DNA of 64,000 nt. Origin: Selaginella moellendorffii (Eukaryota; Plantae; Lycopodiophyta). Shown one piece after another: positions 6,958-60,739 of this stretch. Within the stretch, counting starts at the first letter, position 1. Every line of letters starts with the position of its first letter. Below the pieces are notes generated by a model. The model searched no databases and was not told the origin of the DNA. It was given only the letters and a program-made list of their open reading frames with translations. Both the position numbers and the translations under genes were made by a program. The stretch lies in the NCBI RefSeq assembly GCF_000143415.4, contig NW_003314297.1, positions 1,093,430 through 1,157,429 of the forward strand. The letters are read 5' to 3'.

Positions 6958-6960
6958 AGT

Positions 6961-25246: not shown

Positions 25247-25324
25247 CTCTTGGATTTCTAGAAATCCAAAGATCTTTTTGTTCGTCATGGTATAATCTAA
25301 CGACTTAGCTGCAATGTTTTGGAC

Positions 25325-27426: not shown

Positions 27427-27837
27427 ATGGCACTGTTGAAAGTGTTTTTGATACTGGCAATTTTCTGTGCCGAGGTTTATACTTTCCCGAAGTGTCCAAT
27501 AGCAGGAAGTCCCTTTAGATACAATCACAAATGGTTACGCAAGGGACATCCTTTCCATGCAAATCTAAAGCTCATGTATTCAAGCTTGTACACCTTGAGG
27601 ATCTTGGGTGGCTATCTCCAAGAAGGTAGTGGAAAATTTATTGCCTATGGTTGCTACTCTTGCCCTGTTGGTTTCGACTCGTATGATAGCTGCAGGGCAT
27701 GCATAAGAAACATCCAAGCCATGTTTGACAAGTATGTTCCACTCGCAATTGGTGCTGCTGCTTGCTTGGGTGAAGTGGGGCATATGTGTTACTTGCGATA
27801 TGAAATGTATGACTTTGAGTGTGATGCTCCCTGGTAA
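27427..27837 (+). CDS. Secreted single Gnk2/DUF26-domain cysteine-rich protein (136 aa)
   Basis: Signal peptide, AYG..C-X9-C-X2-C, GA...CYLRYEMYDF, as in ginkbilobin-2-like domains. Confidence 0.8.
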   Translation: MALLKVFLILAIFCAEVYTFPKCPIAGSPFRYNHKWLRKGHPFHANLKLMYSSLYTLRILGGYLQEGSGKFIAYGCYSCPVGFDSYDSCRACIRNIQAMFDKYVPLAIGAAACLGEVGHMCYLRYEMYDFECDAPW

Positions 27838-27931
27838 ACAAAAATATGTCTAAATGGAAGAATTTTCACTCTATTGAGTTTCTTGCTTCTCCATTTGACG
27901 ATTAACCAAAAAAAACCACGAAACAAATAGC

Positions 27932-29693: not shown

Positions 29694-30675
29694 TTTCTTG
29701 TGCAGATGCAAAAAACCCTTAAAACCCTAGACGGATATTCGCAGCGAATCTAATCTACATTTGAAAAACTTCTTAGTTGTTTTCGATTAAGCCCATCTAT
29801 TTACATTGGACATTAGCACAAATGGTGTCACTTGTATAGCTTTTTACTTTTTTCAAGTGAGAATTCCTTACTTTATTAAAATTATTTTAATGAAAATTCT
29901 TGTGAAAATTTTTAGTTTTCAAACACCTGCTCACAATCTTCATTTTTTAAAGCTCTTTATATGGTGTGCAATTTGTAAACTGTTTGTAGATGATTGTATA
30001 TGGACTCATTTAACTTGGCATAATTTAGATGGTAACACTATTTTGGCCAAATCTTGGTTAAACTTTTTTTCCACATACAAAGTCAAAGTATTCCCTATAA
30101 ATATTCCTTAGAATCCAATGGCCACTCCCATTATATTCATAACCCATATTATACCCATTTTATAGCCATCATAAGCTCATATAAAGTGTTGCATTAAGAG
30201 TTCTTTAGAAGGGTTAAATTTCACAAGTATGATAATATAATGGTTGTTGAACTAACCATAATAAACATAGGCTAGCCAAAGATCTTTAACAACAACTATT
30301 GAAATATAGACTACCACAATCAATAGTAACCACAAGTAAGTTGTATGATATTTTTGCATTAGAAACAATTTTGTGCATTATTAAAGTAATGTGTAAAGAC
30401 TGCTTCCTATTGATTGCAATGTAAGAACAAAATATGAAGCATGAAAACTATGGATGTAATTTAACAAAGAGCTTCACATAATGCATTTTACATTGGACTA
30501 ATGACATCCACAATTTAGTCCCTCAGAAATAAATCTATTATCAAATTCCACTAGTACACACTTTTTCTACCTCTTGTTACCTACCAAAAAAACATAGAAA
30601 AATAGTGAAAAAAAATTAAAAAATTCCACTCCTTGATCTCTATAAAGAAGTGGGTAAAAGATAGCACTAGATGAG

Positions 30676-31129: not shown

Positions 31130-31930
31130 TTAGGCCTATGGTGGCCAATGCTTTGGAAAGATGTTACAAAGTTTTGTCATGATTGTGACACATGTCAAAT
31201 ACATAAATTAGCTTAAAAGAAGCAATGTCATAAACTTAATCTTATATATATCCATATGAACCATTTTAGAAATAGGGTTTAAATTTTGTTAAACCAATCA
31301 TGATAAACAACAAGAGAAATAAATACTTGCTAGTTGCTACTAATTAAATGGGTGGAAGCAAAACCACTTAAAAATGCTAATAAACAAAGTTAGATAGAAA
31401 CTATAAACAAAGTTTTAAAGACAATCTTAAAAAAGATTATTTAGGAAAATGGAAAAGATTGGAATGATCATATTCTTGATGCTCTTTGGGATATAGAGTT
31501 GTCTATTAAGTTTCCACTAAAATGACACTAACTCCATATAACTTATATGGAGTCGAAGCTCTTACACCAATAGAATATATTGTAAGATTGGCTATAAAAT
31601 ATAATCTTAGAGAGAAATAAGCATTTCAAAAGAGACTAGCAATGCTAGATAAACTCAATGAAGAAAGGGTAAATGCTTTATGGGCACTTTATGCTATTTA
31701 AACCATAAGAAAAACAAGACATGATTGCAAGATTAAAAAAACTAGTCAAGATATAATCCAACATGGAGATAAAGTCTTTTGAAAAATTGACAATTTTAGA
31801 AATAAATTCTAGAGAAAATGGGAAGGACTATACTTAGTCTTAGATCTCAATCCCAAAGGTTGTGCTAAGATCATAGATCTAATAGAAGAATTTTTACAAA
31901 TTGTCAACTTCAATAAGTTGCACAAGTAGC
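31130..31930 (+). pseudogene. Highly decayed gypsy-type (non-chromovirus) integrase remnant
   Basis: Fragments WP.L.KDVTKFCHDCDTCQ, KYLLVAT..KWVEAKPLKNA, KDWNDHILDALW, KWEGLY. Confidence 0.6.
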
Positions 31931-33189
31931 TCATAAATTTTGTTAAGACAAAACACTTAAGAATTTTAGAAATTCCTCTAGGGTTTACCCTAAAAATGCA
32001 GTGACCAAAAGTAACTGTGCTTGTGGAACTCGAGCCCATCAAGGTGAGTACTACCCTTAACCTTGTCAACTAAGCACACTGCAAAAGAATGCTCCCTCTC
32101 ATAGTTGGTTTCCAAGAGTTAATTGCCATTGAGTAAGGAAGACAAATGATTGAAGCATAAGACAACAATTCCCATTCATTTATTTTCCCTCACACATGAC
32201 TCGAAGTTACAGAGGAAGCAATGATAAGGGCCATGGGAATTTTAAGTGGAAGAGAGTTCATCCAATCCTCCAAAGCTCTCAAATTCCTAATGGACTATGT
32301 CTACATCTATAAAATCTTATCATATATGAAGGGGAACAAGATGAACATCTTTTGGATTCGTAAAAAACATTAAGAGAGAATGAAATTTCTCTCTATCATC
32401 CTTGAGGCTAAAAAGAATCTAAAGAGCATTAGCATCAATCTTGCACAACTTTACTAGCTACTAGACAAAGGAGAGTAGGTGAATTTAGTTGAGCAGATCT
32501 ATGACAAATTTCTAAATCTCATGCGAGAAGTTCAAAAAATCCTGAGTAGTGCCAAGCCAAGGAAAAGTATAGTTTTTCTCTACCTTGTTCCACTGAACAA
32601 ACTGATCTTTGCATCAACAGTGTGATTGATGTTAATGCTTCCTCCTGAAGTAGCACAACCAGACTACAATGATGGTACTAACACTAGCGAGGATGAGGAT
32701 CTTATAGTGGTCAAGCTCTCCACTAGCGAGAAAAAACATCAACTCCATTAAAGAGGCCAAGCATGCCATGTTTAAAGTAGGCTTGAATGGTTACCAAAAA
32801 TCCCAGAGCCAAACAGGGAACACTAGACAAGTCTTATGAGTAACTAGCACGATCTACACCAACAAAAACCATGGAGAATGAGGAGAACTAAAAAAATTCT
32901 AAGTAGCAAAGGAGAAGGGAGTGGCACTAAAAATTCCTCCTCTCAAGCTCGTCGGATGAGGAAAACAATGAAGTAGTCTACAATGATGTAAACAACTCCT
33001 TCCATCACAATTTTGACGAAGTGCCATAGCTAGACAAGTCAAAGGATATGACACTCACAAAAAATTCCTGACTCAAGGGATTGTCCAAGTGAAAGGCCAA
33101 GAAGATCCACCACTTGACCAATCACAGCATGACAAACATCAAGAAAGTCACCCCCTAACAAATAGCCCTCTTCACTTGCAAGGCCCAAC

Positions 33190-34337
33190 TGTAAGGAACC
33201 AACTCGCCGAGGTGTCGTAGGCTAAGGGAACCCCGAAAGCATGACCAAAATGACAAAGAGTTCATCGGATGGGACCAAGTCAAAGATCGAGTCCAAGACC
33301 GACTCTAGGACCGAGTTCGAGATCGAGTCCGGAATCGAGTCCGAGACCGACTCGGGGACCGAGTTCGAGTCCGAGTTCGAGACCGAGTTCGAGACGGAGT
33401 CCGAGATCCGAAATCGGGTCCGAGACCGAGTCTGAAGTCGAGTCCGAGGTCGGGCCCGAGATCGGGTCCGAGATCGAGTCCGCGATCGAGTCCGAGACTG
33501 AATCCGAAGTCGGATCCGAAATCGGATCCGAGATCGAGCCAGAGACTAAGTCCAAATACTAATACGGGTCAAGGGGTGAAAGCCCAAAGCGTGCGTCCCC
33601 CAGGGGGGGGGGGCTGCAGGGGGTTCCAAAAGTATAGTAGGGATAGTGAGGTCCAGGAACCAGTTTTGAAGGGACTCTCCAGTTGGGCTTCCAAACCGAC
33701 TTGAGGTTGGGACTGGGACTAAGGGGCCTTGGGTGGGAGTGAGCATGGACTTGGCTGGTGCCGGAGGGGCCATCCAAGGAAGTGCTCAAGAGCAGCTCCC
33801 ACTCCCGAAAGGGAAACCGATTGCGGTGCTCCCGGCTCATGTGGAGTGGTGCCCCACTTGAGTACCATGCGGCTCATTGGTCCTCGCCCTTCCTAGGGGC
33901 TTGGGCCTTCCTTCGGGATGGAAGTGGGGGGCGAGAGGTACCCATACCGGGCCGTTAGGCCACGGTGTTTCGCCCCGACGTCCCGAAGCAAGTGTTGCAC
34001 TCAAGACTTGGGATTTAGAGGGTCCCATGATCAAGTCTTGTGGTACCAAGGGATGTTAGGAACCTGGAAGCTTGGTGTGCTTGGCTGCTTGTGCTTGCGG
34101 GGAGTGTAGCCGAACCTTAAGTCCAGTCTAACCCGGGGAGGGGGATTGGGAGTGATTTGGGAATCCGTGGAAGGATGGCTAACACTCCGTTGCTCGTGCA
34201 GTGAGTAGCTGAAACCAAGTAGGAGCTGGTACCATAGGCGAGAACCTTGGCAAGGGAACTTAGCAAAAGCCAAGGCAGTGTTGGACGGATAGACGAGGTA
34301 AGCTGGCAAATTGGAAAGGAAAAATTTGTGGCTTACA
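33190..34337 (+). repeat. LTR-A (1148 bp)
   Basis: TGTAAG...CTTACA termini; internal GAGTCCGAGATC-type array. Confidence 0.95.
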
Positions 34338-34340
34338 ATT

Positions 34341-34352
34341 TGGTATCGGAGC
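34341..34352 (+). other. PBS (tRNA-iMet type), copy 1
   Basis: TGGTATCGGAGC 3 nt after the LTR. Confidence 0.92.
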
Positions 34353-37300
34353 CTTTTCCTCAGTTCTAGCGAAGGATAGAGGCGGATTGCTGGGAGATGG
34401 CAAGGGCAGGGCATAAGCGAACCCAGGCGGAGACGGAACCTCCACCAGAGCTGGAGCCTCCGGTCGAACAAGAGGCTATGGATGAGGAATCCTTGCATGA
34501 GGAGGACTCCAGTGAGGAAACCTCCAAACAGGAGTCCGGTGGCGAGGTTCGGTCGTCCAAGGCTCGATTGGACGTGCTAGAAGGACAGTTGGCACAGACC
34601 AATGCCCTGCTGGAAACTCTCGTACGCAAGCTAAAGCGTGACGAGAGGCGGAAGAAAAAGAAAAAGACTGCGGATGCTGGCAGCGCAGAAGGTGCGGATC
34701 TTTCGGCCGGGACTGAGGCAAAACCAGACAAAGTCGAACAGACCGAAGTGGAATCAGTCCCTCAGGCAGTTCCCAAGTACAAACCAAAGCCCCCACCGGT
34801 CTTCAAGGGAGTAAATGACTATAAGGTGGTGGAGGATTGGTTTTACGATATGGAGGACTACTTCCGAGTGTTGCGGTTACCAAGCTCGGAGAAGGTCCCA
34901 TGTGCAAAACCATACTTGGCAGATAATGCCAAGTCTTGGTGGAGAACAACGGAGGCCAACGAAGGACCGGTGGTCACTTAGGACATGATGAAGGCGAGGA
35001 TCCGCGCAACATATGTTCCTCCGAATGCCACTCTGCATCTGAGGGATGAACTGAGTAGGCTGAAACAGACAGGAACCATCCAGGAATATATGAATGGGTT
35101 CATGGCAAAGAGGATACTTGTCACGGACATGGGGGATATGGATGCGTTCCATGCCTTCATATCAGGTTTGCAAACCTGGGCTCGCGGCGAGGTGATGAGG
35201 TGGAACCCGACCAACTACAAGGAAGCGTTGGATGCGGCCATCAAGGTGCATTTCAACGATAACCTGCGAAAGGGGAACACGACGGGGTCGGGATCCACAT
35301 TTAGCAAAGGGGCCAAACCAAGGGGAACGTATAGCAAGGGGAAATTCAAAAGGAGTTTCTCTAAGAATGAGTCCTCGGGGTTCCGGAAAGGCAAATCCGG
35401 TGGCCAGCGAGCGAGTACGTGGGGGAGTCAAGCAAAAAAGGACAAACCCACGGATAAGAAGGTCAAGTCGTATAGCAGCGTGGGAAACAACGTATGCTAC
35501 AACTGCGGCGAAGCGGGACACTTCTCGAGGGAATGTCCCTACCCGAAGAAGGCCAGAGCCAATATGGCCATCAAGTCGGGTGAAGTCCAAACTGAGGTAT
35601 GTGATCCAGTCCCTAACTCAAAGTTACTCATTACACGAGCAACTTTGGTAGAGAGTCGTTCGCGACATCTACTAGCCCTCCGAGGGAAGCTCGGAGGTAG
35701 CTTTGTTAAGATCCTTATTGACACGGGTGCTTCGGATAATTTTGTGGCTGCAGACATAGTCCGGCAAGCCGGACTAACGGTGCAGCGGCTAGGCGAACCA
35801 AGGACTATAGAGTTTGTTCAGGGTAGCCAAAGCACCGATGAGGTACTTCGACAAGCGAAAGTCGAAGTGGGGACATGGAAAGTGGACATGGATTTCACCG
35901 TCTTGGATATGGCGGGATTTGACGTGATCTTCGGAATGGATTGGTTTAATCGGTTCGTGGTAGCCCTGCATGGACAAGGTAGGAACCTTGTGGTATTGGC
36001 GAATGCCCAAGGAAGAAGATCTAGGGTGGAGGCCCAGGATCTAAAGGTAGGGCAAAGCAAGGCCAAAGAGTCATGCTTGAACCTGGTGTCCACGAGAGGA
36101 CAACTCACTAAAGGAACTAAGGCAGCCTTTTTGTGCTTACTCTCGGTGAAGAGTGACAAAAAGACAAGAACGGAAGAAGTGCCTTTAGTGATCCAGCGAG
36201 TGTTGGACCAATTCCAGGATACCATGCCGGAGGAGCTACCGGCGGGGTTGCCCCCCGCACGACCGATAGAACATAAGATTGAGCTTGTCGAGGGCGCTGA
36301 GGCGGTAGTTCGTCCCCCCTATCGTTTGAACGAAAAAGAACTCAAGGAGCTCAAGTGCCAACTAGAGGAGTTGGTGGGCAAAGGGTATGTTAGGTTGAGC
36401 AAGTCGCCGTATGGGGCGCCGGTATTATTTGTGAAAAAGAAAGATGGATCTATGCCCATGTGCATAGATTACCGGTTGCTCAACAAGTATACCAAGAAGA
36501 ACAAGTACCCGTTGCCAAGGATTGAGGACCTGTTCGACAGGTTGGGAAAGGCAAAATACTTCTCGAGGATTGACCTAAGGTCAGGATACTACCAGATCAG
36601 GGTAGCCGAGGAAGATGTCGAGAAGACAACCTGTCGAACGAGGTATGGGAGCTTTGAGTTTTTGGTGATGCCCTTTGGGCTGTGCAATGCGCCGGCAACG
36701 TTTTCGGCGTTGATGAACCACGTCTTTGTACCCTATCTGGATCACTTTGTGGTCGTCTATATTGACGACATCCTGATCTATAGCGAGACGCTAGAGGAGC
36801 ATGCCGAACACTTGGCGAAGGTGTTTGAGAAACTAAGGGAACATAAACTGTATGCTAAAGAGAGCAAATGTGACTTTGCTCAGCAAGAGGTAAAGTTTCT
36901 CGGGCATGTGGTGGGCCAGGACGGGCTCAAGGTGGACCCGGAGAAGGTCCAAGCGATCCAGGAATGGGAGCGACCATCGAATGTACATGAGTTGAGGGCG
37001 TTCTTGGGGCTATGCAACTACTATCAAAAGTTTATCAGACACTATTCGAGAGTAGCCCTGCCCTTAACGGATCAAACGGGAAAAGGGAAGATGGTATGGA
37101 CAGCGGAATGCGAGGCGGCATTCGTCCACCTCAAAGGGAAGTTGAGGAAGGCTCCGGTGTTGGCATTACCGGACTTTGGTAAGGACTTTGAGGTAGACAC
37201 GGATGCTTCGGACTTTGCGTTAGGCGCAGTTTTGAAGCAAGACAACCATCCAGTAGCGTTCTTCTCGAAGAAGCTGGACAAGGCTCAACGGAAGTGGCCT

Positions 37301-38270
37301 GCCCACGAGAAGGAATTGTTTGCGGTGGTCAAGGCGCTCAAAGAGTGGCGACACTACCTTGGGAGACACTTCAAGGTTTACACGGACAATGTGGCAACGA
37401 AACACTTCTTGTCACAACCCGACCTGAGAGGGAAACAAGGTCGGTGGGCCAATGCCTTGGCCGAGTTTGATTGCGAGATTCTGTACAAGCCTGGGAAGAG
37501 CAACATCGTGGCAGATGCGCTAAGTCGAAAAGCGAGCTTGAGGTTGGCGATCTCCAGCGCAACAGCAACCTTCTGGGACGATGTGCGGACAGCATATGAG
37601 AACGATGGTCTAGCACAAGAAGTGTTGTTGAGGAATCTGGAGGCACGGGAAGCTCACCAGAGAGGTGAGCCGCCAACGGAAGAGAAAACGGGCTATGCGG
37701 AACGCAATGGACTCATTTATTACAAGCAAACGAGGGTGTATGTTCCAGAAGGTGGACTAAGGAAGGTAGCCTTAGAAGAGTGTCATGACGGACCTCTTGC
37801 GGGACACGGCGGAGTGCCCAAGACGATGGGCTTACTCAAGAGGAAGTACCATTGGCCAGATATGGCTAAGGACGTCCAAGACTATGTAAAGACATGTCCA
37901 ACATGTCAGCAGGTCAAAGCCGTGACTAAGGCTAGTGGGGGCTTGTTGCAAAGCATCCCCATTCCAGATCGTCCGTGGAAATGTCTCACGATGGACTTCA
38001 TCACGGGACTACCCCCAAGCGAGGGGTTCGATGCGATATTCGTGGTGGTGGACCGATTTTCGAAGATGGCACATTTCATACCCACCACAACGGAGGTAGA
38101 TGCGGAAGGTGTGGCGAAACTGTTCTTCGAACAAGTGGTTCGAGTGCGGGGAAGGCCAGAGGAGATTATCTCAGACCGAGATAAGATCTTCACTAGTAGG
38201 TTCTGGAGGACCCTCCTGGAACAGTATCGCACCAAGTTGAAATTCAGCACAGCCTATCACCCACAGACAG

Positions 38271-38317
38271 GTATGGGGTATTAAGTCAAGTTTGGTGGTC
38301 CTAACACTTCTTGACAG
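38271..38317 (+). other. Intron 1 in integrase, copy 1 (47 nt)
   Basis: CAG|GTATGG...CTAAC...TTGACAG|AC; removal gives [16 protein letters not shown]. Confidence 0.88.
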
Positions 38318-38734
38318 ACGGACAAACGGAAAGGGTGAATAGGCAGCTGGAGGATTATTTGCGATGCTATGTCTCGGGAGACCAGACCGATTGGGTAAGT
38401 CATTTGGGACTTGCGGAAATGTGTTATAACAACTCACCACATTCGAGTATCGGGGTGAGTCCATGGGAAGTCATCAATGGGCGAGCTATTGAAGGTCATG
38501 TGGAACTCGGCGTGGCCGAGTATCATGGAGAGTACCCGCAGTGGAGGCATTCACGGCGGAAAGACTCAACATTTGGAATCTAGTGAGGGATTCCTTGGAA
38601 CGGGCTCAACAAAGGCAAACCAAGTACGCAAACCTAAAGCGCCGGGACGTAGAGTTCCAAGCTGGGGAGAAGGTGTGGCTGAACACCAAGAACCTTAGGC
38701 TACCAAGTGGGATCAGCCGAAAGTTGACCCAAAG

Positions 38735-38786
38735 GTAAAAATGCATGTATTCCTGTAAATGAATTGATCTTGAGTTCCTTAAGCAG
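38735..38786 (+). other. Intron 2 in integrase, copy 1 (52 nt)
   Basis: AAG|GTAAAA...TAAGCAG|G; removal gives [13 protein letters not shown]. Confidence 0.88.
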
Positions 38787-39574
38787 GTTCGCGGGGCCTT
38801 ACGAGATTGAGGCACGAATCGGTAAAGTGGCTTACCGACTCCGACTTCCTCGAGAGATGGGGAAGATGCACCCAGTGTTCCATGTGAACTTACTCAAGCC
38901 GTACTTTGAGGATCCGCTTCGCAAAGACCAAGTAAGACCTTTACCTGAGGTTATCCAAGGGGAAGAGGAATATGAAGTCGAGGCCATCCTCAATGCGCGC
39001 AAGAGCAAGCGACAAGGATGCGAGGTGAGAGAGTTCCATGTGAAGTGGAAAGGATTTCCACACTGCGAAGCAACATGGGAACCGGAGGAGAACCTAGCGA
39101 ACGCGCGAGATCTAGTGGAGGAATTTCTGCAAGGCAGAACTCTATGTACTTATGCAAAGTTCAATTAAAAATATCAATTTGCAAAGTTGAGCAAGTGGCA
39201 TATGTTGGGACCCGAAGGCGCGCCAAAGGTGAGCTAATTAGCATGGGTTAGCTAGGTCGACCAGGCGTAGGGAGCTACGCCCGACTCCCTGCGGGGATGT
39301 CGAAACCGTAGACGTATTCTACGGAGGTTGGGTTCGAGTCCCAACCCCCTAGTAAAGCAAGGCTGGGTTCAAGTCCCGACCCCATACTAGGGCGTGGTGA
39401 GGGGAGGAGTATAGGGACACCTATATTCCGTTGTCATGAGCTCTTGGCCGGGGAGGCTAACTTAGGCACACCGCTAAGTGGGGGGATGCCCCCGAAGACA
39501 TGGTCAACAAGTCGTAGGATAAAAAAAAGAGACGTTCGATGTGGGCATCGAACTTCTTCTATGGGTGGTGGAGT

Positions 39575-40723
39575 TGTAAGGAACCAACTCGCCGAGGTGT
39601 CGTAGGCTAAGGGAACCCCAAAAGCATGACCAAAATGACAAAGAGTTCATCGGATGGGACCAAGTCAAAGATCGAGTCCAAGACCGACTCTAGGACCGAG
39701 TTCGAGATCGAGTCCGGAATCGAGTCCGAGACCGACTCGGGGACCGAGTTCGAGTCCGAGTTCGAGACCGAGTTCGAGACGGAGTCCGAGATCCGAAATC
39801 GGGTCCGAGACCGAGTCCGAAGTCGAGTCCGAGGTCGGGCCCGAGATCGGGTCCGAGATCGAGTCCGCGATCGAGTCCGAGACCGAATCCGAAGTCGGAT
39901 CCGAAATCGGATCCGAGATCGAGCTAGAGACTAAGTCCAAATACTAATACGGGTCAAGGGGTGAAAGCCCAAAGCGTGCGTCCCCCAGGGGGGGGGGGGC
40001 TGCAGGGGGTTCCAAAAGTATAGTAGGGATAGTGAGGTCCAGGAACCAGTTTTGAAGGGACTCTCCAGTTGGGCTTCCAAACCGACTTGAGGTTGGGACT
40101 GGGACTAAGGGGCCTTGGGTGGGAGTGAGCATGGACTTGGCTGGTGCCGGAGGGGCCATCCAAGGAAGTGCTCAAGAGCAGCTCCCACTCCCGAAAGGGA
40201 AACCGATTGCGGTGCTCCCGGCTCATGTGGAGTGGTGCCCCACTTGAGTACCATGCGGCTCATTGGTCCTCGCCCTTCCTAGGGGCTTGGGCCTTCCTTC
40301 GGGATGGATGTGGGGGGCGAGGGGTACCCATACCGGGCCGTTAGGCCACGGTGTTTCGCCCCGGCGTCCCGAAGCAAGTGTTGCACTCAAGACTTGGGAT
40401 TTAGAGGGTCCCATGATCAAGTCTTGTGGTACCAAGGGATGTTAGGAATCTGGAAGCTTGGTGTGCTTGGCTGCTTGTGCTTGCGGGGAGTGTAGCCGAA
40501 CCTTAAGTCCAGTCTAACCCGGGGAGGGGGATTGGGAGTGATTTGGGAATCCGTGGAAGGATGGCTAACTCTCCGTTGCTCGTGCAGTGAGTAGCTGAAA
40601 CCAAGTAGGAGCTGGTACCATAGGCGAGAACCTTGGCAAGGGAACTTAGCAAAAGCCAAGGCAGTGTTGGACGGATAGACGAGGTAAGCTGGCAAATTGG
40701 AAAGGAAAAATTTGTGGCTTACA
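39575..40723 (+). repeat. LTR-B, shared central LTR (1149 bp)
   Basis: Preceded by a PPT-like tract, followed by the PBS at 40727-40738. Confidence 0.95.
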
Positions 40724-40782
40724 ATTTGGTATCGGAGCCTTTTCCTCAGTTCTAGCGAAGGATAGAGGCGGATTGCTGGGAG

Positions 40783-43700
40783 ATGGCAAGGGCAGGGCGT
40801 AAGCGAACCCAGGCGGAGACGGAACCTCCGCCAGAGCTGGAGCCTCGGGTCGAACAAGAGGCTATGGATGAGGAATCTTTGCATGAGGAGGACTCCAGTG
40901 AGGAAACCTCCAAACAGGAGTCCGGTGGCGAGGTTCGGTCGTCCAAGGCTCGATTGGACGTGCTAGAAGGACAGTTGGCACAGACCAATGCCCTGCTGGA
41001 AACTCTCGTACGCAAGCTAAAGCGTGACGAGAGGCGGAAGAAAAAGAAAAAGACTGCGGATGCTGGCAGCGCAGAAGGTGCGGATCTTTCGGCCGGGACT
41101 GAGGCAAAACCAGACAAGGTCGAACAGACCGAAGTGGAATCAGTCCCTCAGGCAGTTCCCAAGTACAAACCAAAGCCCCCACCGGTCTTCAAGGGAGTGA
41201 ATGACTATAAGGTGGTGGAGGATTGGTTTTACGATATGGAGGACTACTTCCGAGCGTTGCGGTTACCAAGCTCGGAGAAGGTCCCATGTGCAAAACCATA
41301 CTTGGCAGATAATGCCAAGTCTTGGTGGAGAACAACGGAGGCCAACGAAGGACCGGTGGTCACTTGGGACATGATGAAGGCGAGGATCCGCGCAACATAT
41401 GTTCCTCCGAATGCCACTCTGCATCTGAGGGATGAACTGAGTAGGCTGAAACAGACAGGAACCATCCAGGAATATGTGAATGGGTTCATGGCAAAGAGGA
41501 TACTTGTCACGGACATGGGGGATATGGATGCGTTCCATGCCTTCATATCAGGTTTGCAAACCTGGGCTCGCGGCGAGGTGATGAGGTGGAACCCGACCAA
41601 CTACAAGGAAGCGTTGGATGCGGCCATCAAGGTGCATTTCAATGATAACCTGCGAAAGGGGAACACGACGGGGTCGGGATCCACATTTAGCAAAGGGGCC
41701 AAACCAAGGGGAACGTATAGCAAGGGGAAATTCAAAAGGAGTTTCTCTAAGAATGAGTCCTCGGGGTTCCGGAAAGGCAAATCCGGTGGCCAGCGAGCGA
41801 GTACGTGGGGGAGTCAAGCGAAAAAGGACAAACCCACGGATAAGAAGGTCAAGTCGTATAGCAGCGTGGGAAACAACGTATGCTACAACTGCGGCGAAGC
41901 GGGACACTTCTCGAGGGAATGTCCCTACCCGAAGAAGGCCAGAGCCAATATGGCCATCAAGTCGGGTGAAGTCCAAACTGAGGTATGTGATCCAGTCCCT
42001 AACTCAAAGTTACTCATTACACGAGCAACTTTGGTAGAGAGTCGTTCGCGACATCTACTAGCCCTCCGAGGGAAGCTCGGAGGTAGCTTTGTTAAGATCC
42101 TTATTGACACGGGTGCTTCGGATAATTTTGTGGCTGCAGACATAGTCCGGCAAGCCGGACTAACGGTGCAGCGGCTAGGCGAACCAAGGACTATAGAGTT
42201 TGTTCAGGGTAGCCAAAGCACCGATGAGGTACTTCGACAAGCGAGAGTCGAAGTGGGGACATGGAAAGTGGACATGGATTTCACCGTCTTGGATATGGCG
42301 GGATTTGACGTGATCTTCGGAATGGATTGGTTTAATCGGTTCGTGGTAGCCCTGCATGGACAAGGTAGGAACCTTGTGGTATTGGCGAATGCCCAAGGAA
42401 GAAGGTCTAGGGTGGAGGCCCAGGATCTAAAGGTAGGGCAAAGCAAGGCCAAAGAGTCATGCTTGAACCTGGTGTCCACGAGAGGACAACTCACTAAAGG
42501 AACTAAGGCAGCTTTTTTGTGCTTACTCTCGGTGAAGAGTGACAAAAAGACAAGAACGGAAGAAGTGCCTTTAGTGATCCAGCGAGTGTTGGACCAATTC
42601 CAGGATACCATGCCGGAGGAGCTACCGGCGGGGTTGCCCCCCGCACGACCGATAGAACATAAGATTGAGCTTGTCGAGGGCGCTGAGGCGGTGGTTCGTC
42701 CCCCCTATCGTTTGAACGAAAAAGAACTCAAGGAGCTCAAGTGCCAACTAGAGGAGTTGGTGGGCAAAGGGTATGTTAGGTTGAGCAAGTCGCCGTATGG
42801 GGCGCCGGTATTATTTGTGAAAAAGAAAGATGGATCTATGCGCATGTGCATAGATTACCGGTTGCTCAACAAGTATACCAAGAAGAACAAGTACCCGTTG
42901 CCAAGGATTGAGGACCTGTTCGATAGGTTGGGAAAGGCAAAATACTTCTCGAGGATTGACCTAAGGTCAGGATACTACCAGATCAGGGTAGCCGAGGAAG
43001 ATGTCGAGAAGACAACCTGTCGAACGAGGTATGGGAGCTTTGAGTTTTTGGTGATGCCCTTTGGGCTGTGCAATGCGCCGGCAACGTTTTCGGCGTTGAT
43101 GAACCACGTCTTTGTACCCTATCTGGATCACTTTGTGGTCGTCTATATTGACGACATCCTGATCTATAGCGAGACGCTAGAGGAGCATGCCGAACACTTG
43201 GCGAAGGTGTTTGAGAAACTAAGGGAACATAAACTGTATGCTAAAGAGAGCAAATGTGACTTTGCTCAGCAAGAGGTAAAGTTTCTCGGGCATGTGGTGG
43301 GCCAGGACGGGCTCAAGGTGGACCCGGAGAAGGTCCAAGCGATCCAGGAATGGGAGCGACCATCGAATGTACATGAGTTGAGGGCGTTCTTGGGGCTATG
43401 CAACTACTATCGAAAGTTTATCAGACACTATTCGAGAGTAGCCCTACCCTTAACGGATCAAACGGGAAAAGGGAAGATGGTATGGACAGCGGAATGCGAG
43501 GCGGCATTCGTCCACCTCAAAGGGAAGTTGAGGAAGGCTCCGGTGTTGGCATTACCGGACTTTGGTAAGGACTTTGAGGTAGACACGGATGCTTCGGACT
43601 TTGCGTTAGGCGCAGTTTTGAAGCAAGACAACCATCCAGTAGCGTTCTTCTCGAAGAAGCTGGACAAGGCTCAACGGAAGTGGCCTGCCCACGAGAAGGA

Positions 43701-45555
43701 ATTGTTTGCGGTGGTCAAGGCGCTCAAGGAGTGGCGACACTACCTTGGGAGACACTTCAAGGTTTACACGGACAATGTGGCAACGAAACACTTCTTGTCA
43801 CAACCCGACCTGAGAGGGAAACAAGGTCGGTGGGCCAATGCCTTGGCCGAGTTTGATTGCGAGATCCTGTACAAGCCTGGGAAGAGCAACATCGTGGCAG
43901 ATGCGCTAAGTCGAAAAGCGAGCTTGAGGTTGGCGATCTCCAGCGCAACAGCAACCTTCTGGGACGATGTGCGGACAGCATATGAGAACGATGGTCTAGC
44001 ACAAGAAGTGTTGTTGAGGAATCTGGAGGCACGGGAAGCTCACCAGAGAGGTGAGCCGCCAACGGAAGAGAAAACGGGCTATGCGGAACGCAATGGACTC
44101 ATTTATTACAAGCAAACGAGGGTGTATGTTCCAGAAGGTGGACTAAGGAAGGTAGCCTTAGAAGAGTGTCATGACGGACCTCTTGCGGGACACGGCGGAG
44201 TGCCCAAGACGATGGGCTTACTCAAGAGGAAGTACCATTGGCCAGATATGGCTAAGGACGTTCAAGACTATGTAAAGACATGTCCAACATGTCAGCAGGT
44301 CAAAGCCGTGACTAAGGCTAGTGGGGGCTTGTTGCAAAGCATCCCCATTCCAGATCGTCCGTGGAAATGTCTCACGATGGACTTCATCACGGGACTACCC
44401 CCAAGCGAGGGGTTCGATGCGATATTCGTGGTGGTGGACCGATTTTCGAAGATGGCACATTTCATACCCACCACAACGGAGGTGGATGCGGAAGGTGTGG
44501 CGAAACTGTTCTTCGAACAAGTGGTTCGAGTGCGGGGAAGGCCAGAGGAGATTATCTCAGACCGAGATAAGATCTTCACTAGTAGGTTCTGGAGGACCCT
44601 CCTGGAACAGTATCGCACCAAGTTGAAATTCAGCACAGCCTATCACCCACAGACAGGTATGGGGTATTAAGTCAAGTTTGGTGGTCCTAACACTTCTTGA
44701 CAGACGGACAAACGGAAAGGGTGAATAGGCAGCTGGAGGATTATTTGCGATGCTATGTCTCGGGAGACCAGACCGATTGGGTAAGTCATTTGGGACTTGC
44801 GGAAATGTGTTATAACAACTCACCACATTCGAGTATCGGGGTGAGTCCATGGGAAGTCATCAATGGGCGAGCTATTGAAGGTCCTGTGGAACTCGGCGTG
44901 GCCGAGTATCATGGAGAGTTACCCGCAGTGGAGGCATTCACGGCGGAAAGACTCAACATTTGGAATCTAGTGAGGGATTCCTTGGAACGGGCTCAACAAA
45001 GGCAAACCAAGTACGCGAACCTAAAGCGCCGGGACGTAGAGTTCCAAGCTGGGGAGAAGGTGTGGCTGAACACCAAGAACCTTAGGCTACCAAGTGGGAT
45101 CAGCCGAAAGTTGACCCAAAGGTAAAAATGCATGTATTCCTGTAAATGAATTGATCTTGAGTTCCTTAAGCAGGTTCGCGGGGCCTTACGAGATTGAGGC
45201 ACGAATCGGTAAAGTGGCTTACCGACTCCGACTTCCTCGAGAGATGGGGAAGATGCACCCAGTGTTCCATGTGAACTTACTCAAGCCGTACTTTGAGGAT
45301 CCGCTTCGCAAAGACCAAGTAAGACCTTTACCTGAGGTTATCCAAGGGGAAGAGGAATACGAAGTCGAGGCCATCCTCAATGCGCGCAAGAGCAAGCGAC
45401 AAGGACGCGAGGTGAGAGAGTTCCATGTGAAGTGGAAAGGATTTCCACACTGCGAAGCAACATGGGAACCGGAGGAGAACCTAGCGAACGCGCGAGATCT
45501 AGTGGAGGAATTTCTGCAAGGCAGAACTCTATGTACTTATGCAAAGTTCAATTAA
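40783..45555 (+). CDS. Intact spliced Gag-Pol polyprotein, copy 2 (exons 40783-44656, 44704-45121, 45174-45555; 1557 aa): Gag, CCHC knuckle, protease, RT, RNase H, integrase, chromodomain
   Basis: [35 protein letters not shown](35)E after splicing, [12 protein letters not shown]...VKWKGF...TWEPEENL. The exon sum of 4674 nt is a multiple of 3. Confidence 0.93.
44657..44703 (+). other. Intron 1 in integrase, copy 2 (47 nt)
   Basis: Identical to 38271-38317. Confidence 0.88.
45122..45173 (+). other. Intron 2 in integrase, copy 2 (52 nt)
   Basis: Identical to 38735-38786. Confidence 0.88.
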
Positions 45556-45959
45556 AAATATCAATTTGCAAAGTTGAGCAAGTGGCACATGTTGGGACCC
45601 GAAGGCGCGCCAAAGGTGAGCTAATTAGCATGGGTTAGCTAGGTCGACCAGGCGTAGGGAGCTACGCCCGACTCCCTGCGGGGATGTCGAAACCGTAGAC
45701 GTATTCTACGGAGGTTGGGTTCGAGTCCCAACCCCCTAGTAAAGCAAGGCTGGGTTCAAGTCCCGACCCCATACTAGGGCGTGGTGAGGGGTGGAGTATA
45801 GGGACACCTATATTCCGTTGTCATGAGCTCTTGGCCGGGGAGGCTAACTTAGGCACACCGCTAAGTGGGGGGATGCCCCCGGAGACATGGTCAACAAGTC
45901 GTAGGATAAAAAAGAGACGTTCGATGTGGGCATCGAACTTCTTCTATGGGTGGTGGAGT

Positions 45960-47073
45960 TGTGAGGAACCAACTCGCCGAGGTGTCGTAGGCTAAGGGAA
46001 CCCCGAAAGCATGACCAAAATGACAAAGAGTTCATCGGATGGGACCAAGTCAAAGATCGAGTCCAAGACCGACTCTAGGACCGAGTTCGAGATCGAGTCC
46101 GGAATCGAGTCCGAGACCGACTCGGGGACCGAGTTCGAGTCCGAGTTCGAGACCGAGTTCGAGACGGAGTCCGAGATCCGAAATCGGGTCCGAGATCGAG
46201 TCCGCGATCGAGTCCGAGACCGAATCCGAAGTCGGATCCGAAATCGGATCCGAGATCGAGCCAGAGACTAAGTCCAAATACTAATACGGGTCAAGGGGTG
46301 AAAGCCCAAAGCGTGCGTCCCCCAGGGGGGGGGGGCTGCAGGGGGTTCCAAAAGTATAGTAGGGATAGTGAGGTCCAGGAACCAGTTTTGAAGGGACTCT
46401 CCAGTTGGGCTTCCAAACCGACTTGAGGTTGGGACTGGGACTAAGGGGCCTTGGGTGGGAGTGAGCATGGACTTGGCTGGTGCCGGAGGGGCCATCCAAG
46501 GAAGTGCTCAAGAGCAGCTCCCACTCCCGAAAGGGAAACCGATTGCGGTGCTCCCGGCTCATGTGGAGTGGTGCCCCACTTGAGTACCATGCGGCTCATT
46601 GGTCCTCGCCCTTCCTAGGGGCTTGGGCCTTCCTTCGGGATGGATGTGGGGGGCGAGGGGTACCCATACCGGGCCGTTAGGCTACGGTGCCAAGGCAGTG
46701 TTGGACGGATAGACGAGGTAAGCTGGCAAATTGGAAAGGAAAAATTTGTGGCTTACAGTCCCATGATCAAGTCTTGTGGTACCAAGGGATGTTAGGAACC
46801 TGGAAGCTTGGTGTGCTTGGCTGCTTGTGCTTGCGGGGAGTGTAGCCGAACCTTAAGTCCAGTCTAACCCGGGGAGGGGGATTGGGAGTGATTTGGGAAT
46901 CCGTGGAAGGATGGCTAACACTCCGTTGCTCGTGCAGTGAGTAGCTGAAACCAAGTAGGAGCTGGTACCATAGGCGAGAACCTTGGCAAGGGAACTTAGC
47001 AAAAGCCAAGGCAGTGTTGGACGGATAGACGAGGTAAGCTGGCAAATTGGAAAGGAAAAATTTGTGGCTTACA
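45960..47073 (+). repeat. LTR-C (1114 bp), rearranged
   Basis: 48-bp shorter repeat array; internal copy of the LTR 3' end at about 46689-46757. Confidence 0.92.
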
Positions 47074-48639
47074 CCAACACTTGAGTAGTAGGAGATTCAA
47101 CCCAAGCTTCCACATTCTCTCGACCAGCAACAATCAAGCATGGGAGAAGCACAACACAACGAAGGCAAGCTGCCTTACTTCCACCATGATGATAACAAAA
47201 ACAAACAATAAAAGATGGAAGGTGAGGACAAAGTGGCTAACAACCTTGCTTTTGTACTGGTCAAGTGCACGGATGGCAGTAAAATGCCTGAGCAACTAGC
47301 AATCACCTAGAGGTCTTTAGCTCCAATAAATTACTTCTTGATGAAGACTTCCATTGCTACCTTGCTTGCCACAAAGGAGCCCATGTCATTAAGCTCCTAA
47401 GCTAAAGACCTCAAGGTGATTGCTAGTCACTCGGGCTTTTTACTACCATCCATGCACTTGACTAATGCAAGAACAAGGTCATTAACCACTTTATCCTCAC
47501 CTTCAATCCTTTATTGTTTTATTTGTTGTCATCATGGCAAAAGTAAAGCAACTTGCCTCTGTTGTGTTGTGCTCCTCCTATGTTTGACTATTGCTAGTCG
47601 AGAAGCTCAGGTTGAAACTCCTACTGCTGTTGGGTCTTGCAAGTGTTGGGTCTTGCAAGTGAGGAGGGCTACTTGCTGGAGGGTGGCTTTCTTGATGTTT
47701 GTTATGCTATGATTGGTCAAGTGGTGGATCTTCTTGGCCTTTCACTTGGACAATCCCTTGAGTCAGGAATTTTTTGCGAGTGTCAAATCCCCTGACTTGT
47801 CTAATTGTGGCACCTCATCAAAATTGTGATAGAAGGAGCTATTTACATCATTATAGACTACTTCATTGTTGTTCTCATCCGATGAGTTTAAGAGGAGGAG
47901 TTTTTAGTGCCACTCCCTTCTCCTTTGTTGTTTGGAATTTTTTTAGTTCTCCTCATTCTCCATGGTTTTTGTTGGTGTAGATCGTCTTGGTTGCTCACAA
48001 GACTTGTCTAGTTTCCTTGTTTGGCTCTGGGATTTTTGGTAACCATTTAAGTCTATTTTAAACATGGCATATTCGGCCTCTTTAGTGAAGTTAATGTTTC
48101 TTCCTCACTAGTGGAGAGCTCAACCGCTACAAGATCCTCATCCTCGCTAGTGTTGGTACCATTATTGTAGTTTGGTTGTGTTACTTCGGGAGGAAGCATT
48201 GACATTAGTTAAATTGTTGGTGGAAAGATTAGCTTGTACAGTGGAGCAAGGTAGAGAAAAACTATAGTTTTTCTTGGCTTGCAACTACTCAAGATTTTTT
48301 GAACTCCTCGCATGAAATTTAGAAATTTGTCATGAATCTGCTCAACCAAATCCACCTACTCTTCTTTGTTTAATAGCTAGTAAAGTTGTGCAAGATTGAT
48401 GTTGATGCTTTTCAGATTCTTCTTAGCCTCAAGGATGATGGAGAAAAATTTCACTCTCTCCTAATGCTTCTTGTGAATCCAAAAGATGCTCATCCCCTTC
48501 CCCTTCAAGTATAATAAAATTTTGTGGACATCACAAAGATTAGCTTACATAATGATTGAGTGATGAGCTTGTGGACAACAGTTAAGCACTTGGTGGAAAG
48601 ATCAGCTTGTACAGTGATTGCCAAAAAATTTTGAATCAC

Positions 48640-48990
48640 AATTTTGATTGTCTCATTAATGAATTGAGTTCCTTTTTCAGTCATAATTTCTTAAGGTAGT
48701 CCAAATCTAGAAATTATATTCTCAAAGATGAAATTTATTGTGCTTTTAGCATTAGCATTTTTAAATGGTTTTTCTTCCACCCATTTAGTAACATAATTAA
48801 TAGCACCTAGCAAATATTCATTTCTCTTGCTGTTTGTCATGATTGGTCTAACAAAATCTAAGTCTTCTTTCTAAAATGGTTCATATGGATATATAAGATG
48901 AAATTCATGACTTTACTAATTTATATTTTTGATATGTGTCACAATTATGGCAAAACTTTGTAACATCTTTCTAAAGAAATTTCATGGGCT
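48640..48990 (-). pseudogene. Decayed integrase remnant, inverted partner of 31130-31400
   Basis: Minus strand KDVTKFCHNCDT...NYVTKWVE.KP.KNA...ENIISRFGLP*EIMTEKGTQFIN. Confidence 0.65.
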
Positions 48991-55400: not shown

Positions 55401-57979
55401 CACTGAAGAAATATTTCAGTGTAGCTTCGTGCTTAGAATCTAGTGAAGGAACCAAAACAAAAAGAACTTGAGGCTAGATGAGATGCAACCAAAAGAAAGA
55501 AGAAATCAAATGCAAACTTCTCAAGAATTCTCACAAAGAACAATAACAAAAACCAAAAGATTCTCCATGCAGCTTAAGATGATGATACCTTTTACAAGAG
55601 GTGATTACCTTGCAAGACTGTGATATCACAAGCAAAATCCATGTACACTGGCCCAGCTAGCCCAGCAGACACGTCACCACACATCACTGAATACATGTTT
55701 AATATTTGAATTTATTTGGAATATGCAACGATAAATATATTGCATATTTTAGAATTTAGTAATATTAACTCAATAAATATTAAATTAATTCAAACTTTGG
55801 TAGTGTTTTGGATGTTACATATATAGATTTAGGCTATGAATGCTTGTGCTTGGGTTTTCTAAATATGACCAAATCCCCATTGGCAGATTTGATTCTGTTT
55901 TTTAATGTAACATATTCCTTTATTATTTAAGGATGACTTGGAACTTTACACAACACTTTTTTAGTGTTCAAAGTTTCTTTATTCTAGTTATGAGCTGGTG
56001 CTTGGGTCTTTTTCTTCATCAGTATACATTCTAAATTGGTTAGCCCCACCATTTCCAGAGTGGTCCCTTTCCCCCAACCTTCTCCACATAGATGGGATTC
56101 TTTGCCCTTGAGTTCTTCAATTTCAAAAGGTACTTCTCCATATGTACATGTCTCCAAAGCCTTTGTCTCTAAAGGCTTTGTCTCCAAAGGCTTTGTTTCT
56201 AAAGATTTTATCTTTTAAACTTTTGTCTTCTGATGCCAAATTTTGTCTCCCAAGAACAAGCAATAGTTTTAGAAGGCAATGCCATCTTGTTGTGTGATGG
56301 ACACTTTTGGTACTGAATGTGTAGAGTGTGATTGTCTTTCAACATATATCATTTTGAGTTTGGACTTTGAGGAGGAGCAAGGAAAAGACTATCCTAGGAA
56401 GACAATGGGTAATTGGAGAGTTTGTCATATTTTATACCAACTACTATTATGAAGAAGATGTGGAAAAAGACAAAGATGAAGAGACAGTGTAATACAAGAG
56501 TGGATTTCCTTATGCCTAGTGTGTGTTACTTTTCAAGTTTCATTTTATAGTAATAGTATGGATTTTTTTTCTTTTTTTATTTTATTACTTTATATTAGTC
56601 AAAAAACATATATTATATTAATCAAAGTCCTCTAATAAATCTTCCTCTACCAATTTAAAGTTGAAAAGTACTGTGCCTTTATCACTTTCTTCCCTTTTAG
56701 TTGTGGTGTTGAAGTTTCCTTCTCTTTTAGCCCTCTTTTTTTAATATAATTTACAGCTTCTTGGTTTTGTTCCAATGATAATGCATGACAGCCATTATTG
56801 ACAGCTGCGAAAAAGGCACTTCTTATGCCACTAATACAACCCATTTTTCAAGTGTTTTGCAATGCATGAGAAAGTCAAGAAAGTTTGAATTTATCTTTGC
56901 TCTTCTGACCATGTTGCTGTTGTTGGCTCCATGTTTTCCTTAATAAATTTGAAGCACATCATTAAGGTCCCAATGGTAGGCTGTTGTGGCAAATCTTGAA
57001 GATGAGGCCTTTGGTCTTGTCAAAGACATTTTCATTATTGATTTCTATAATGATTTTGTTAATATTGAAAAAACTTATAATTGTGCATATTTGTGTTTTG
57101 CCAAGTTTATTTATCATGTAGTTAAATGAATAGTCACTCAGAATTATGTATAATTGATAGATTTTCAAAATTTGGATAGTTTAAATTTATTTATGACAAC
57201 CATGCCTTGAATCAATGATTTCCTTCCCATACAAGTAGCATCTGATTAAAAAAAACCTTCTTCAATTCAATATAAGTCTCATCTCTTAAACTAGCCTCAA
57301 ATTTCATCAAGCCATTCATTTTAAGAAACTTTTTTTTTATTCAAAAGTGCTAGACACTTTGCCACAATAAACTTGGACAATTGACAATCAAAAAAAAAGT
57401 TCCACCTCCCCAAGTGCTTTTATATTGTATGATTTTGAATCCAATGGTGTAATAAGTGGTGGACATTGTTAACTAATTTAGGTTTTCCATTCAATAATGT
57501 TATAGAAAATTTGAGATAACCTCCATTTTGAACTTCAAGTGATAATTAAATGAATTTGTATCCAAAACCTTTTTTTGTGCTCATGGGTTTATTTTCCATT
57601 TTTCCTTTCCTTTAACTCTATCTTTGGCTCCACCTAATTACTTTATAGTCATTCTTCTTTATGTAATTTGACTCTCCAAAGGGTCAAAGTGATTATTTTC
57701 CTCTTCTTCATCTTGTTGCTACTCCTCGTTGTAGTGCATTGAATCTACTAATCCTTCTATTGTGTAGACCAGCTATTCCATGTGAGACAACTAGTCATCC
57801 ACCTGTACCGCAGTCCCACGGTGGATACCTTCGTCTGGGATGCTCCATAGGAGGAAGGACGTACGCATGGATGCCCAATACGTACGATTTTCTAATTTAG
57901 GGGTAGGAATATACCTTGCTCAAAGGTATATTATATTTTAGATAGCCACTAATCAATGGGAATCGAACCCGTGCTATTT

Positions 57980-60739
57980 GCTCCGATACCAACTATAGCG
58001 CACCTTATCTCTCTCCCCTTAAGCCAATTGGAAAAGGGGCAATTGCTTGATGAGAGAGCCCTTAGTGGCTATTTTATCCCCATTTATCCCCCAAGGTTCC
58101 AAGGATCCACGGTGACAGTATATCCAAATCTCATCCTATGATCACATGCGCTACACTCGTCCTCCTTAGATTCATCTTTAGGAAATTTAGGATTCTCAAT
58201 TTATTCACTTTATTGAGGATTATTTCATGAAGCTTGAGAAAGGTTTTTTCCCCTACACTATGCCAGTGTTCCTTGTAGCATGGATAGTAGTATTCATGTT
58301 AAATATTGCCTTCTTGCATATGTTTGAGCAACTCACTAAAATCTAGAAAGAGCAAGTATAAACATGAAAAAAAAAAAACTAAAACTAAAACTAAAGATTA
58401 GTCATTGCAAATCAAGGTGGCTAAATGCAGGAATTAGCCATAAATCAAGCTACTACATTTAGCACAACTACATTCTAGCTATTGATTTCAAGTTGCCATG
58501 AGAGGAGCCACAGCACCACTCTCCCTCATGTGGCAGCTCAGGTGGCAAGTTTGAGCCACACCCCATCATATGGCAACCATGGCAGCCCAAGCTAGGCAAG
58601 CTCAATCCACCATAGAAGCTCAAGCAGTGCCATGGTGATTCTTGCGGTAGCAAGAAGTGAGTGCTTCTTATCTATATGCTTGCTGCTCCTTGCACATCTC
58701 TCACTCAAAAATCCTAGCTAGCTAAAACAAGATTTTCATGAGCCATGCAAGGTATCTAAGTAGGTAGTGTCACCCACACTTGGATTATGAGCATTTGTAG
58801 CACACTTGAATTTGGAGCCGAACTCCAAGCCCATTACACTACGAAATGAGGGTCCCCGTATCTAGCACTTGCACGCAAAATGGTGTCAAACAAAGTTTGG
58901 CACAATTTTGGCATACTAGTAGCCTAACGCGAGGAGGAGGGTACCCCACTGACTAGAGCAGCATGGAGTTTGGGCTTAGACCCAAGCCGGACGCAGAACA
59001 AAGAGCGACACAACCCAGCGGAAGCCAAACTAATGTCTCAGGTGGTCAAACATGCATTCCAACCACTATCCCTACTNNNNNNNNNNNNNNNNNNNNNNNN
59101 NNNNNNNNNNNNNNNNNNNNNNNNNNNNNNNNNNNNNNNNNNNNNNNNNNNNNNNNNNNNNNNNNNNNNNNNNNNNCTTATCACTCGGTGGCCTGCGTAT
59201 CCATAATAGCAAAGGTGTTTGGCAAACATAATAAGTTATCATCCAACAATATTAAGGGATTAGTTTCAATATCGCAAGGTTTCTTGATACTAGCAAATGC
59301 AAGCAAATGATACGAGTTTTCAAACCAGGCCGAGTATGCTCAGCAAAAAACACATAGGGTTTCTACCTTATGTTTATCCAATTTAAGTGCAAGGTCATTG
59401 ACCAGTTTCTCAACTAACTCAAGTGGGAATGATAAAGGGAACCAATTGTACTAACCTTCTGCTATCATGTTAGTAAGGAAAGAGTGTTTGTAAGGACTAG
59501 CCGACAAATATCTTTTGATACCCGAAGTCACATTTGCGACACCACTAATCATTTGATCTAGAGTTAACTCTTGATCACTTCACCAAGTGTTTATTTATGT
59601 TCACTCTAACCTTGGACTCCTTAGTGGTTATATCATCACCTACCACATGAATGTAACCTCCTTAATCACATTGGCCTTTTCTAACCAAACTAGTTCCACT
59701 AAAATTTTCCCATACACTCTTCCTACTATACTTTTGGAATCTCTTGTAGACCCCTTCCTGAGGGATGTTTGCTTTGAGCTTTCACCCCACAACTTGTATT
59801 CGTATTCAGACTTTGATTCGGACTCAGACTCGGACTTGGTCTCAATCTTAGTCTTGACTATGGCCTCAAACTCAATCTTGGTTTCGGTCTTAGTTTTGGA
59901 CTTGAACTCTATCTCAGACCTAGTCTTACCTCCATCTCAAACTTGGCCATGGGCTTTATCTCAAACTCGGCCTTGACATTTCAAAACACCATGGCCCAAT
60001 GTGGGCCTCATAAGTACTTCCCCCACCTTTTGCCTCTAGGGTGCCCCAGCCATGGCTAGAGCAAGATTCTAATGAGCCACATAAGATATCCAAATAAGTA
60101 ATACCACTCATATTTGGATTAAGAGCATCAACCATTTAATATCCCAAGGGAGCTAAAGTTAGCTTTTGACCACTTTACAAAGTTACTCTATTTATTTATT
60201 GATGTTCACTCTAACTTTGGACTCCTTAATGGTTATATCATCACCCACCACATAAGTGTAGCCTTCCTTGGTTACACTAACCTTTCTTGACCAAATTAAT
60301 TTCACTGAAGTTCTTCCTTATACTCTCCTTATTATACTTTTGGAACCCCCTTTTGGGATCACTTTAGGCTTTCACCTTTGGATTTGGACTCGAACTTAGA
60401 CTCAGTCTTAGTCTTGGTTTCAGTCTTAGTCTTAATCTCAATCTTGAATTTGATCTCAATCTCTGTCTTAGTTTTGGTCTCGCACTCGATCTTAACACTT
60501 CTATATGTCATGACACTTGCCATATGTTGGTCCTTTTTATGTCCCTTTCAAGTGACTCACTTATTGATCACTTTATATTCATTCCTTAAGCACTTATTTG
60601 GGAGTTTCACTCCCACTCTTGACTTTCCGAGTTGGAGTTTTTGGTCCAAATATGTTATGCTTATTAGACTTTTACTTCAGTCACTAGCATTTGACATGGT
60701 TTTGGCTCCACTTTAAGCCTTAGGGATTTGTGTCTTATA
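57980..60739 (-). mobile_element. Decayed family-1-related LTR sequence with PBS, internal duplication, nested insert and gap
   Basis: PBS TGGTATCGGAGC (minus, 57980-57991). 59570-60000 and 60050-60739 align to the family-1 LTR with heavy C>T/G>A decay; ends tagggatttgtgtcttata. Confidence 0.7.
59077..59176. other. Assembly gap (100 N)
   Basis: Run of N. Confidence 1.

Follow-up and report, generated by a model that had tools for sequence, protein, structure and literature searches.

Two short introns almost certainly interrupt the integrase gene of a Ty3/Gypsy retrotransposon of Selaginella moellendorffii. The element lies in the window, i.e. the whole stretch of 64,000 nucleotides that was analysed (contig NW_003314297.1, positions 1,093,430 to 1,157,429), and the two inserts behave as spliceosomal (U2-type) introns: they have GT..AG ends and are skipped precisely in sequence data. 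Beyond a preliminary description made from the DNA alone, the present analysis adds a splice that removes the primer-binding site (PBS), a splice that leaves only Gag, and the identity of the family.

Organization of the element

Three LTRs and two internal regions form a tandem array (LTR-internal-LTR-internal-LTR, 33190-47073; all the parts of the element are on the forward strand), which is enclosed as a whole by a single target-site duplication of 5 bp (TSD; left copy 33185-33189, right copy 47074-47078). LTR 1 (33190-34337; 1148 bp, TG..CA) shows 9 mismatches in 1148 with LTR 2 (39575-40723; 1149 bp), which is common to both copies of the element. LTR 3 (45960-47073; 1114 bp) lacks 48 nt and repeats the 69-nt LTR end internally (46689-46757); this extra LTR end, in which the donor of intron A (see below) is included, replaces an internal stretch. 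The internal region of copy 1 (34338-39574) holds all four splice segments (34298-34363, 35597-35753, 38271-38317 and 38735-38786), the counterparts of those of copy 2. Its gag contains a stop and its exon 2 lacks 1 nt, neither of which had been mentioned in the preliminary description.

In copy 2, the PBS (40727-40739, of the tRNA-Met type according to PMC3350952) falls within intron A. Coding exon 1 (40783-44656) encodes Gag, the zinc knuckle, protease, reverse transcriptase (RT), RNase H, the HHCC motif and the first two catalytic Asp residues of integrase; exon 2 (44704-45121) encodes the catalytic Glu and the remainder of the integrase core, and exon 3 (45174-45555) the SH3/GPY-F region and the chromodomain. 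The polypurine tract (PPT, 45946-45959) precedes LTR 3. If left unspliced, the open reading frame (ORF) of copy 2 (40783-44670) amounts to 1295 aa, from Gag through most of the integrase core. The domain order Gag-PR-RT-RH-INT, the TG..CA LTRs, the PBS, the PPT and the TSD are those of a Ty3/Gypsy element, and the chromodomain of exon 3 (PF00385, E 1e-16), which is joined to integrase only after splicing, is that of a chromovirus.

Together, the two flanks of the tandem (31151-33189 and 47645-48976) make up long inverted repeats, with arms of 60-430 nt that are 86-90% complementary, so that the array lies within an older inverted-repeat structure. Within the single TSD (33185-47078), what look like two distinct family lineages stand in tandem. 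This suggests that a cDNA or a one-LTR circle recombined into a resident LTR, or that the two copies integrated jointly; as a speculation, integrase-poor particles might favour the formation of such tandems.

Two introns in the integrase gene

Intron 1 (44657-44703; 47 nt, GT..AG, phase 1) separates the second catalytic Asp from the Glu, and intron 2 (45122-45173; 52 nt, GT..AG, phase 2) lies directly before the GPY/F motif; each carries an in-frame stop. Positions, lengths, ends and stops proved to be as the preliminary description had given them, and so did the identity of both inserts with those of copy 1 (38271-38317 and 38735-38786). It should be noted that this identity is weak evidence when taken alone, as it concerns 99 nt in copies that are about 99% alike. 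Frame arithmetic also confirmed the 1557-aa polyprotein that had been predicted after excision of both introns, and the D,D(35)E spacing: the catalytic residues are D1200 and D1260, and 35 residues lead from D1260 to the Glu once intron 1 is removed.

Removal of both inserts restores collinearity with the homologs together with the D,D(35)E spacing. At junction 1, exactly one residue stands between the flanking peptides in 89 of the 90 scorable homologs (out of 120). At junction 2, 76 of 79 homologs fall within -3 to +6 residues, and 19 of them, the closest relatives included, have exactly one.

The ends of intron 1 share a 5-letter direct repeat (44652-44656 and 44699-44703), and those of intron 2 a 4-letter one (45120-45123 and 45172-45175). 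Such repeats would agree with an origin of the introns by insertion into an AG|G site, while the splice consensus accounts for part of them.

The stated match in size with the introns of the host is based on a single predicted in-frame host intron of 51 nt (22938-22988), in the gene of a trypsin-like protease. Mean lengths reported in a transcriptome study are 285 bp for all introns and 106 bp for retained ones (PMC5310277).

Evidence for splicing

Four sequencing runs from two studies were mapped to the element. Run X1 consists of Logan contigs (25.8 million letters), whose RNA status was guessed by a tool and is not recorded, while X17 is on record as raw RNA reads. Contig 3 of X1 (2500 nt, 42904-45502) reads straight across both inserts, leaving out precisely their 47 and 52 nt, and the 47 nt of intron 1 are also skipped in one of the eight reads of X17 that mapped. 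Contig 3 shows 80 differences from the window and no gaps, and because of these differences it represents another copy of the family or another strain. The raw-read runs X17, X18 and X19 gave 8, 1 and 0 mapped reads among 9.2 million raw records each, so the element is nearly silent in X18 and X19. The skip of intron 1 was seen in two studies, those of introns A, 0 and 2 in the X1 run alone.

Alternative intron 0 (41983-42139; 157 nt, GT..AG), whose joint is in contig 2 of X1, includes the codon of the protease catalytic Asp (42106-42108); after its removal the frame ends at 401 aa and encodes Gag only. Intron A (40684-40749; 66 nt, GT..AG) takes in the entire PBS as well as the final 40 nt of the LTR. 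It was deduced from the loose end of a single contig, not from a called joint: contig 1 of X1 has a 110-nt loose end before 40748, of which the 30 letters shown correspond to 40652-40681 with 2 mismatches. Its donor is strong, its acceptor is pyrimidine-rich, and it is identical in both tandem copies. Three of the best five U1-like donors on the forward strand between 40500 and 45960 are those of introns A, 0 and 1; the remaining fourth donor in use scores 6/9. A strong donor and an acceptor were found together in 0 of 12 PBS contexts from distant relatives, and RNA structure around the PBS gave no signal (z -0.45). All four splice segments are present in both DNA copies.

The skips in X1 point to splicing, because the same run loses the protease-site and PBS segments, a loss that would be disabling in a DNA copy. 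Ribosomal frameshifting or hopping is unneeded, because the skips occur in nucleic acid. The four joints fall on three separate X1 contigs. No molecule in X1 has the protease kept and both integrase introns lost, the sole contig over the protease being spliced at intron 0, and depth arithmetic gave no X1 contig retaining intron 0. The further suggestion that single splicing acts as a switch for target choice found no support: the sole contig across both integrase sites is spliced at both, although frame arithmetic would allow such a product, 1431 aa long, if intron 1 alone is excised.

A second LTR element, which is non-coding, lies on the reverse strand (1062-9115). Its two LTRs (2154 and 1834 bp) differ by 72 mismatches in 1824, and its TSD measures 5 bp. 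It has LTR ends, poly-G, PBS and PPT in common with the main element and lacks any pol match; an acceptor-like signal directly follows its PBS, and there is no strong donor. It is likely a non-autonomous partner of the main element. Elsewhere in the window, the host genes at 17475-29726 encode a plastocyanin-like protein, a trypsin-like protease, a mitochondrial carrier and proteins of the PPR and PX-domain types, and a frame of 553 aa (10016-11680, reverse strand) contains 42-nt repeats but matches nothing in Pfam. At about 57950-58010 on the reverse strand, a tRNA-T-arm-like stretch comes after a PBS-like motif; it was not called by ARAGORN and is perhaps a tRNA-derived repeat.

Identity of the family

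SM1-Galahad is a family of S. moellendorffii with hundreds of copies that are about 95% alike, none of which was found to be intact (PMC3350952). Its LTRs are longer than 1 kb and have poly-G, its PBS is of the tRNA-Met type, and its consensus has an ORF of 3885 bp (1295 aa) followed by short ORFs of 316 and 309 bp, the latter encoding the chromodomain (PMC3350952). The ORFs in the window measure 3885, 318 and 309 bp; the 318-bp frame, which starts with ATG within exon 2, is the published 'ORF2', and the 309-bp frame within exon 3 the published 'ORF3'. In ORF sizes, in its poly-G LTRs of about 1.1 kb, in PBS type and in host, the element matches SM1-Galahad and is here called SM1-Galahad-type, an assignment made by these measures and the host and not by alignment to the consensus sequence. 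A single-exon host gene in the window groups with a protein of S. moellendorffii. The consensus is about 7.5 kb long with LTRs of 1076/1146 bp (PMC3350952), compared with 1148/1149/1114 bp in the window.

The breaks in the consensus are interpreted in PMC3350952 as additional ORFs, whereas here they are read as introns; the words 'intron' and 'splic' have 0 occurrences in the main text of that paper. Because the ORF sizes in the window equal those of a multi-copy consensus, the breaks are likely a property of the family and not of this locus, and the integrase inserts would likely be family-wide. SM1-Galahad is a known family whose splicing-dependent design had apparently gone unrecognised. 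One-off disabling insertions that preceded the local duplication, which the preliminary description had named as the alternative, are rejected, as the consensus has the same breaks and the differences between the tandem copies are mostly synonymous.

Selection and relatives

Contig 3 was compared with the window at the first 40 of 152 rows of differences, all 40 in RT/RNase H; 36 of these are synonymous and 4 are not. The tandem internal regions show 27 coding differences, of which 17 are synonymous. Random change would be expected to give 22-34% synonymous differences, and the binomial P is about 1e-13 or less for contig 3 and 1e-3 to 1e-5 for the tandem. This synonymous excess indicates that the intron-carrying lineages diverged under protein-level selection, the test covering exon 1 almost entirely: in exons 2-3, the tandem comparison has only 2 synonymous and 2 non-synonymous changes. 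As their differences are mostly synonymous, the tandem copies are not merely a post-insertion duplicate that drifts neutrally; they look like two lineages of the family, both of which have kept all four segments. Identity to the closest relatives is 42% in exon 2 and 48% in exon 3, compared with 52% in that part of integrase which exon 1 encodes; this argues against decay of exons 2-3 and is not itself a test of selection.

For comparison at the nucleotide level, 83 relative loci were used, consisting of the best 80 of 567 metagenome matches and 3 viral ones. None of these loci has an insert at either junction where this is measurable: at junction 1 the distance is 3 nt in 78 loci and 4 nt in 2, the other 3 being continuous though unmeasured, and at junction 2 it is 0-9 nt in the 43 measurable loci. 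Similarly, 155 of 172 matched protein stretches have one residue at junction 1, and the other 17 have no exon-2 match. Exon 2 was matched as a stand-alone protein by 0 of 11 candidates. The window's own ORFs are absent from the protein collection searched, where Gag gave 5 matches at 28-31%, the best RT-INT matches stayed below 60% across the region, and no relative was more than about 64% identical when the whole RT domain is counted. To place the element with respect to the Galadriel/Galahad clade, a quick tree of 40 rows was made, which included no labelled reference elements; in it the element shares a 21-row set (SH-aLRT 99) with elements from Riccia and from angiosperms and with unnamed ones. 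The simplest reading of these comparisons would be intron gain in this lineage, a direction that rests on distant relatives, because SM2-Galahad was not recovered among the matches. GingerRoot as the origin of the intron-bearing integrase finds no support in the available text of PMC6839031.

How the introns may be retained

It is probable that the element makes its own integrase from spliced RNA. The preliminary description had called this integrase splicing-gated; of that idea, the intron behaviour of the inserts stands and their family-wide occurrence appears likely, while the division of labour, with unspliced RNA as the genome and spliced RNA supplying integrase, is the most likely reading. 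We lean slightly towards a full model in which the introns are spliced from the RNA and kept in the DNA since spliced RNAs lose the PBS and serve only as messages. Three RNA pools would exist. RNA spliced at intron 0 would give Gag only; RNA that keeps intron 0 and has lost introns A, 1 and 2, which we infer to occur as one molecule, would give the 1557-aa Gag-Pol with the whole chromo-integrase; and unspliced RNA would be the genome and the exclusive template of reverse transcription. Removal of intron A would be coupled to that of introns 1 and 2. As is established for LTR elements, minus-strand synthesis cannot be primed on RNA that lacks a PBS. If intron A is lost whenever the others are lost, no spliced RNA can give rise to a new copy, and the introns therefore persist. 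That retrotransposons must avoid copying spliced RNA has been pointed out before (PMC3735527). An RNA that retains the PBS and lacks introns 1 and 2 would quickly erase them, and the model offers no reason for the rarity of such RNA. The chances are evenly balanced for the most far-reaching form of the proposal, namely that true spliceosomal introns, gained in the active-site region of integrase, persist through rounds of reverse transcription since splicing deletes the PBS, that the spliceosome alone parts genome from message, that neither Gag nor integrase is made without splicing, and that the genomic RNA cannot encode a working integrase.

Integrase might also be made from spliced RNA while the introns persist for another reason, either a separate unspliced genomic pool with a start site of the BARE1 type or selective packaging, intron A then being an ordinary 5'-UTR intron. 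BARE1 does have a TATA box of its own for the uncapped, unspliced RNA that alone is replicated (PMC3735527), and with the four splices spread over three contigs their coupling was not seen. However, a strong donor and an acceptor lie tightly around the PBS and are identical in both copies, and the absence of this pair of signals from all 12 PBS contexts of distant relatives also speaks against this explanation, which we regard as unlikely. Less likely still is that the family is integrase-defective and takes integrase in trans from SM2-Galahad, the splicing of the inserts being incidental. This sister family, which has one continuous ORF of 1577 aa and whose copies in this genome number in the hundreds (PMC3350952), could be such a donor, and the integrase-coding isoform was not seen as one molecule in X1; but both splices restore frame and spacing exactly, exons 2-3 are conserved about as well as the upstream part of integrase, and contig 3 is free of gaps there.

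The insert-less contig could, finally, come from intron-free master copies elsewhere in the genome, of which the insert-bearing copies would be a dependent subfamily. The 80 differences of contig 3 from the window and the lack of a record of X1 as RNA would fit such an origin. We consider it very improbable, given that the consensus of many copies is interrupted at these very positions and no intact copy was found (PMC3350952), and that X1 also skips two GT..AG segments, at the protease site and the PBS, whose loss would disable a DNA copy.

Comparison with known systems

That introns disappear when an element retrotransposes is the classic proof of its RNA intermediate. If introns do lie in the integrase core of a high-copy family, an LTR element can gain introns within its enzyme and keep them; the primer-site splice would explain, simply and in a way open to test, how the copying of a retroelement's own spliced messages is avoided. 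In addition, families that, like this one ('no intact copy'), were scored as dead from pol stops and frameshifts may still work, above all where the introns of the genome are short.

Searches of open-access full text gave no account of introns within the integrase of an LTR retrotransposon, nor of a splice that takes out the PBS of a plant element; two papers there mention Galahad together with Selaginella. The available texts of PMC2864245, PMC6839031, PMC9940879, PMC7998251 and PMC5310277 contain nothing on integrase introns. A 2025 review describes plant LTR elements as generally without introns, with Ogre and Evade as the notable exceptions (PMC12786077, in the part available), and splicing has also been reported for CRR and env RNAs (PMC3735527).

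In Evade and the Ty1/Copia elements of Arabidopsis, an alternative intron at the protease yields a frameshifted, Gag-only mRNA (PMC5580714). Evade and BARE1 thus resemble the present element in making a Gag-only mRNA by splicing, as with intron 0 (PMC5580714, PMC3735527). They are, however, Copia elements whose unspliced RNA encodes the whole Pol, whereas here the element is a Gypsy one and unspliced RNA cannot encode a complete integrase; in Arabidopsis Gypsy elements, no conserved splicing of this kind was found (PMC5580714). Penelope-like elements also retain introns after retrotransposition, but they have neither LTRs nor a DDE integrase, and the mechanism of retention is stated to be unknown (PMC8557442, in the part available).

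Further parallels concern how Pol is expressed. In foamy viruses, the major donor lies upstream of the PBS. Their Pol, integrase included, is translated from a spliced RNA separate from the genomic RNA, but it is a single large splice that produces a separate Pol, and the enzyme itself has no intron (PMC7828637). Ogre is a Gypsy element whose intron is retained in the DNA and whose full polyprotein needs splicing, with one intron of about 274 bp at a domain boundary, between the Gag-PR and RT-RH-INT ORFs (PMC6317226, PMC4408406, PMC12786077). Here, in contrast, two short introns split integrase itself, and an additional splice removes the PBS. Moreover, one ORF runs from Gag to mid-integrase and a chromodomain is present, whereas Ogre belongs to the Tat lineage, which has no chromodomain. 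The element works like Ogre in principle, without being a member of that group.
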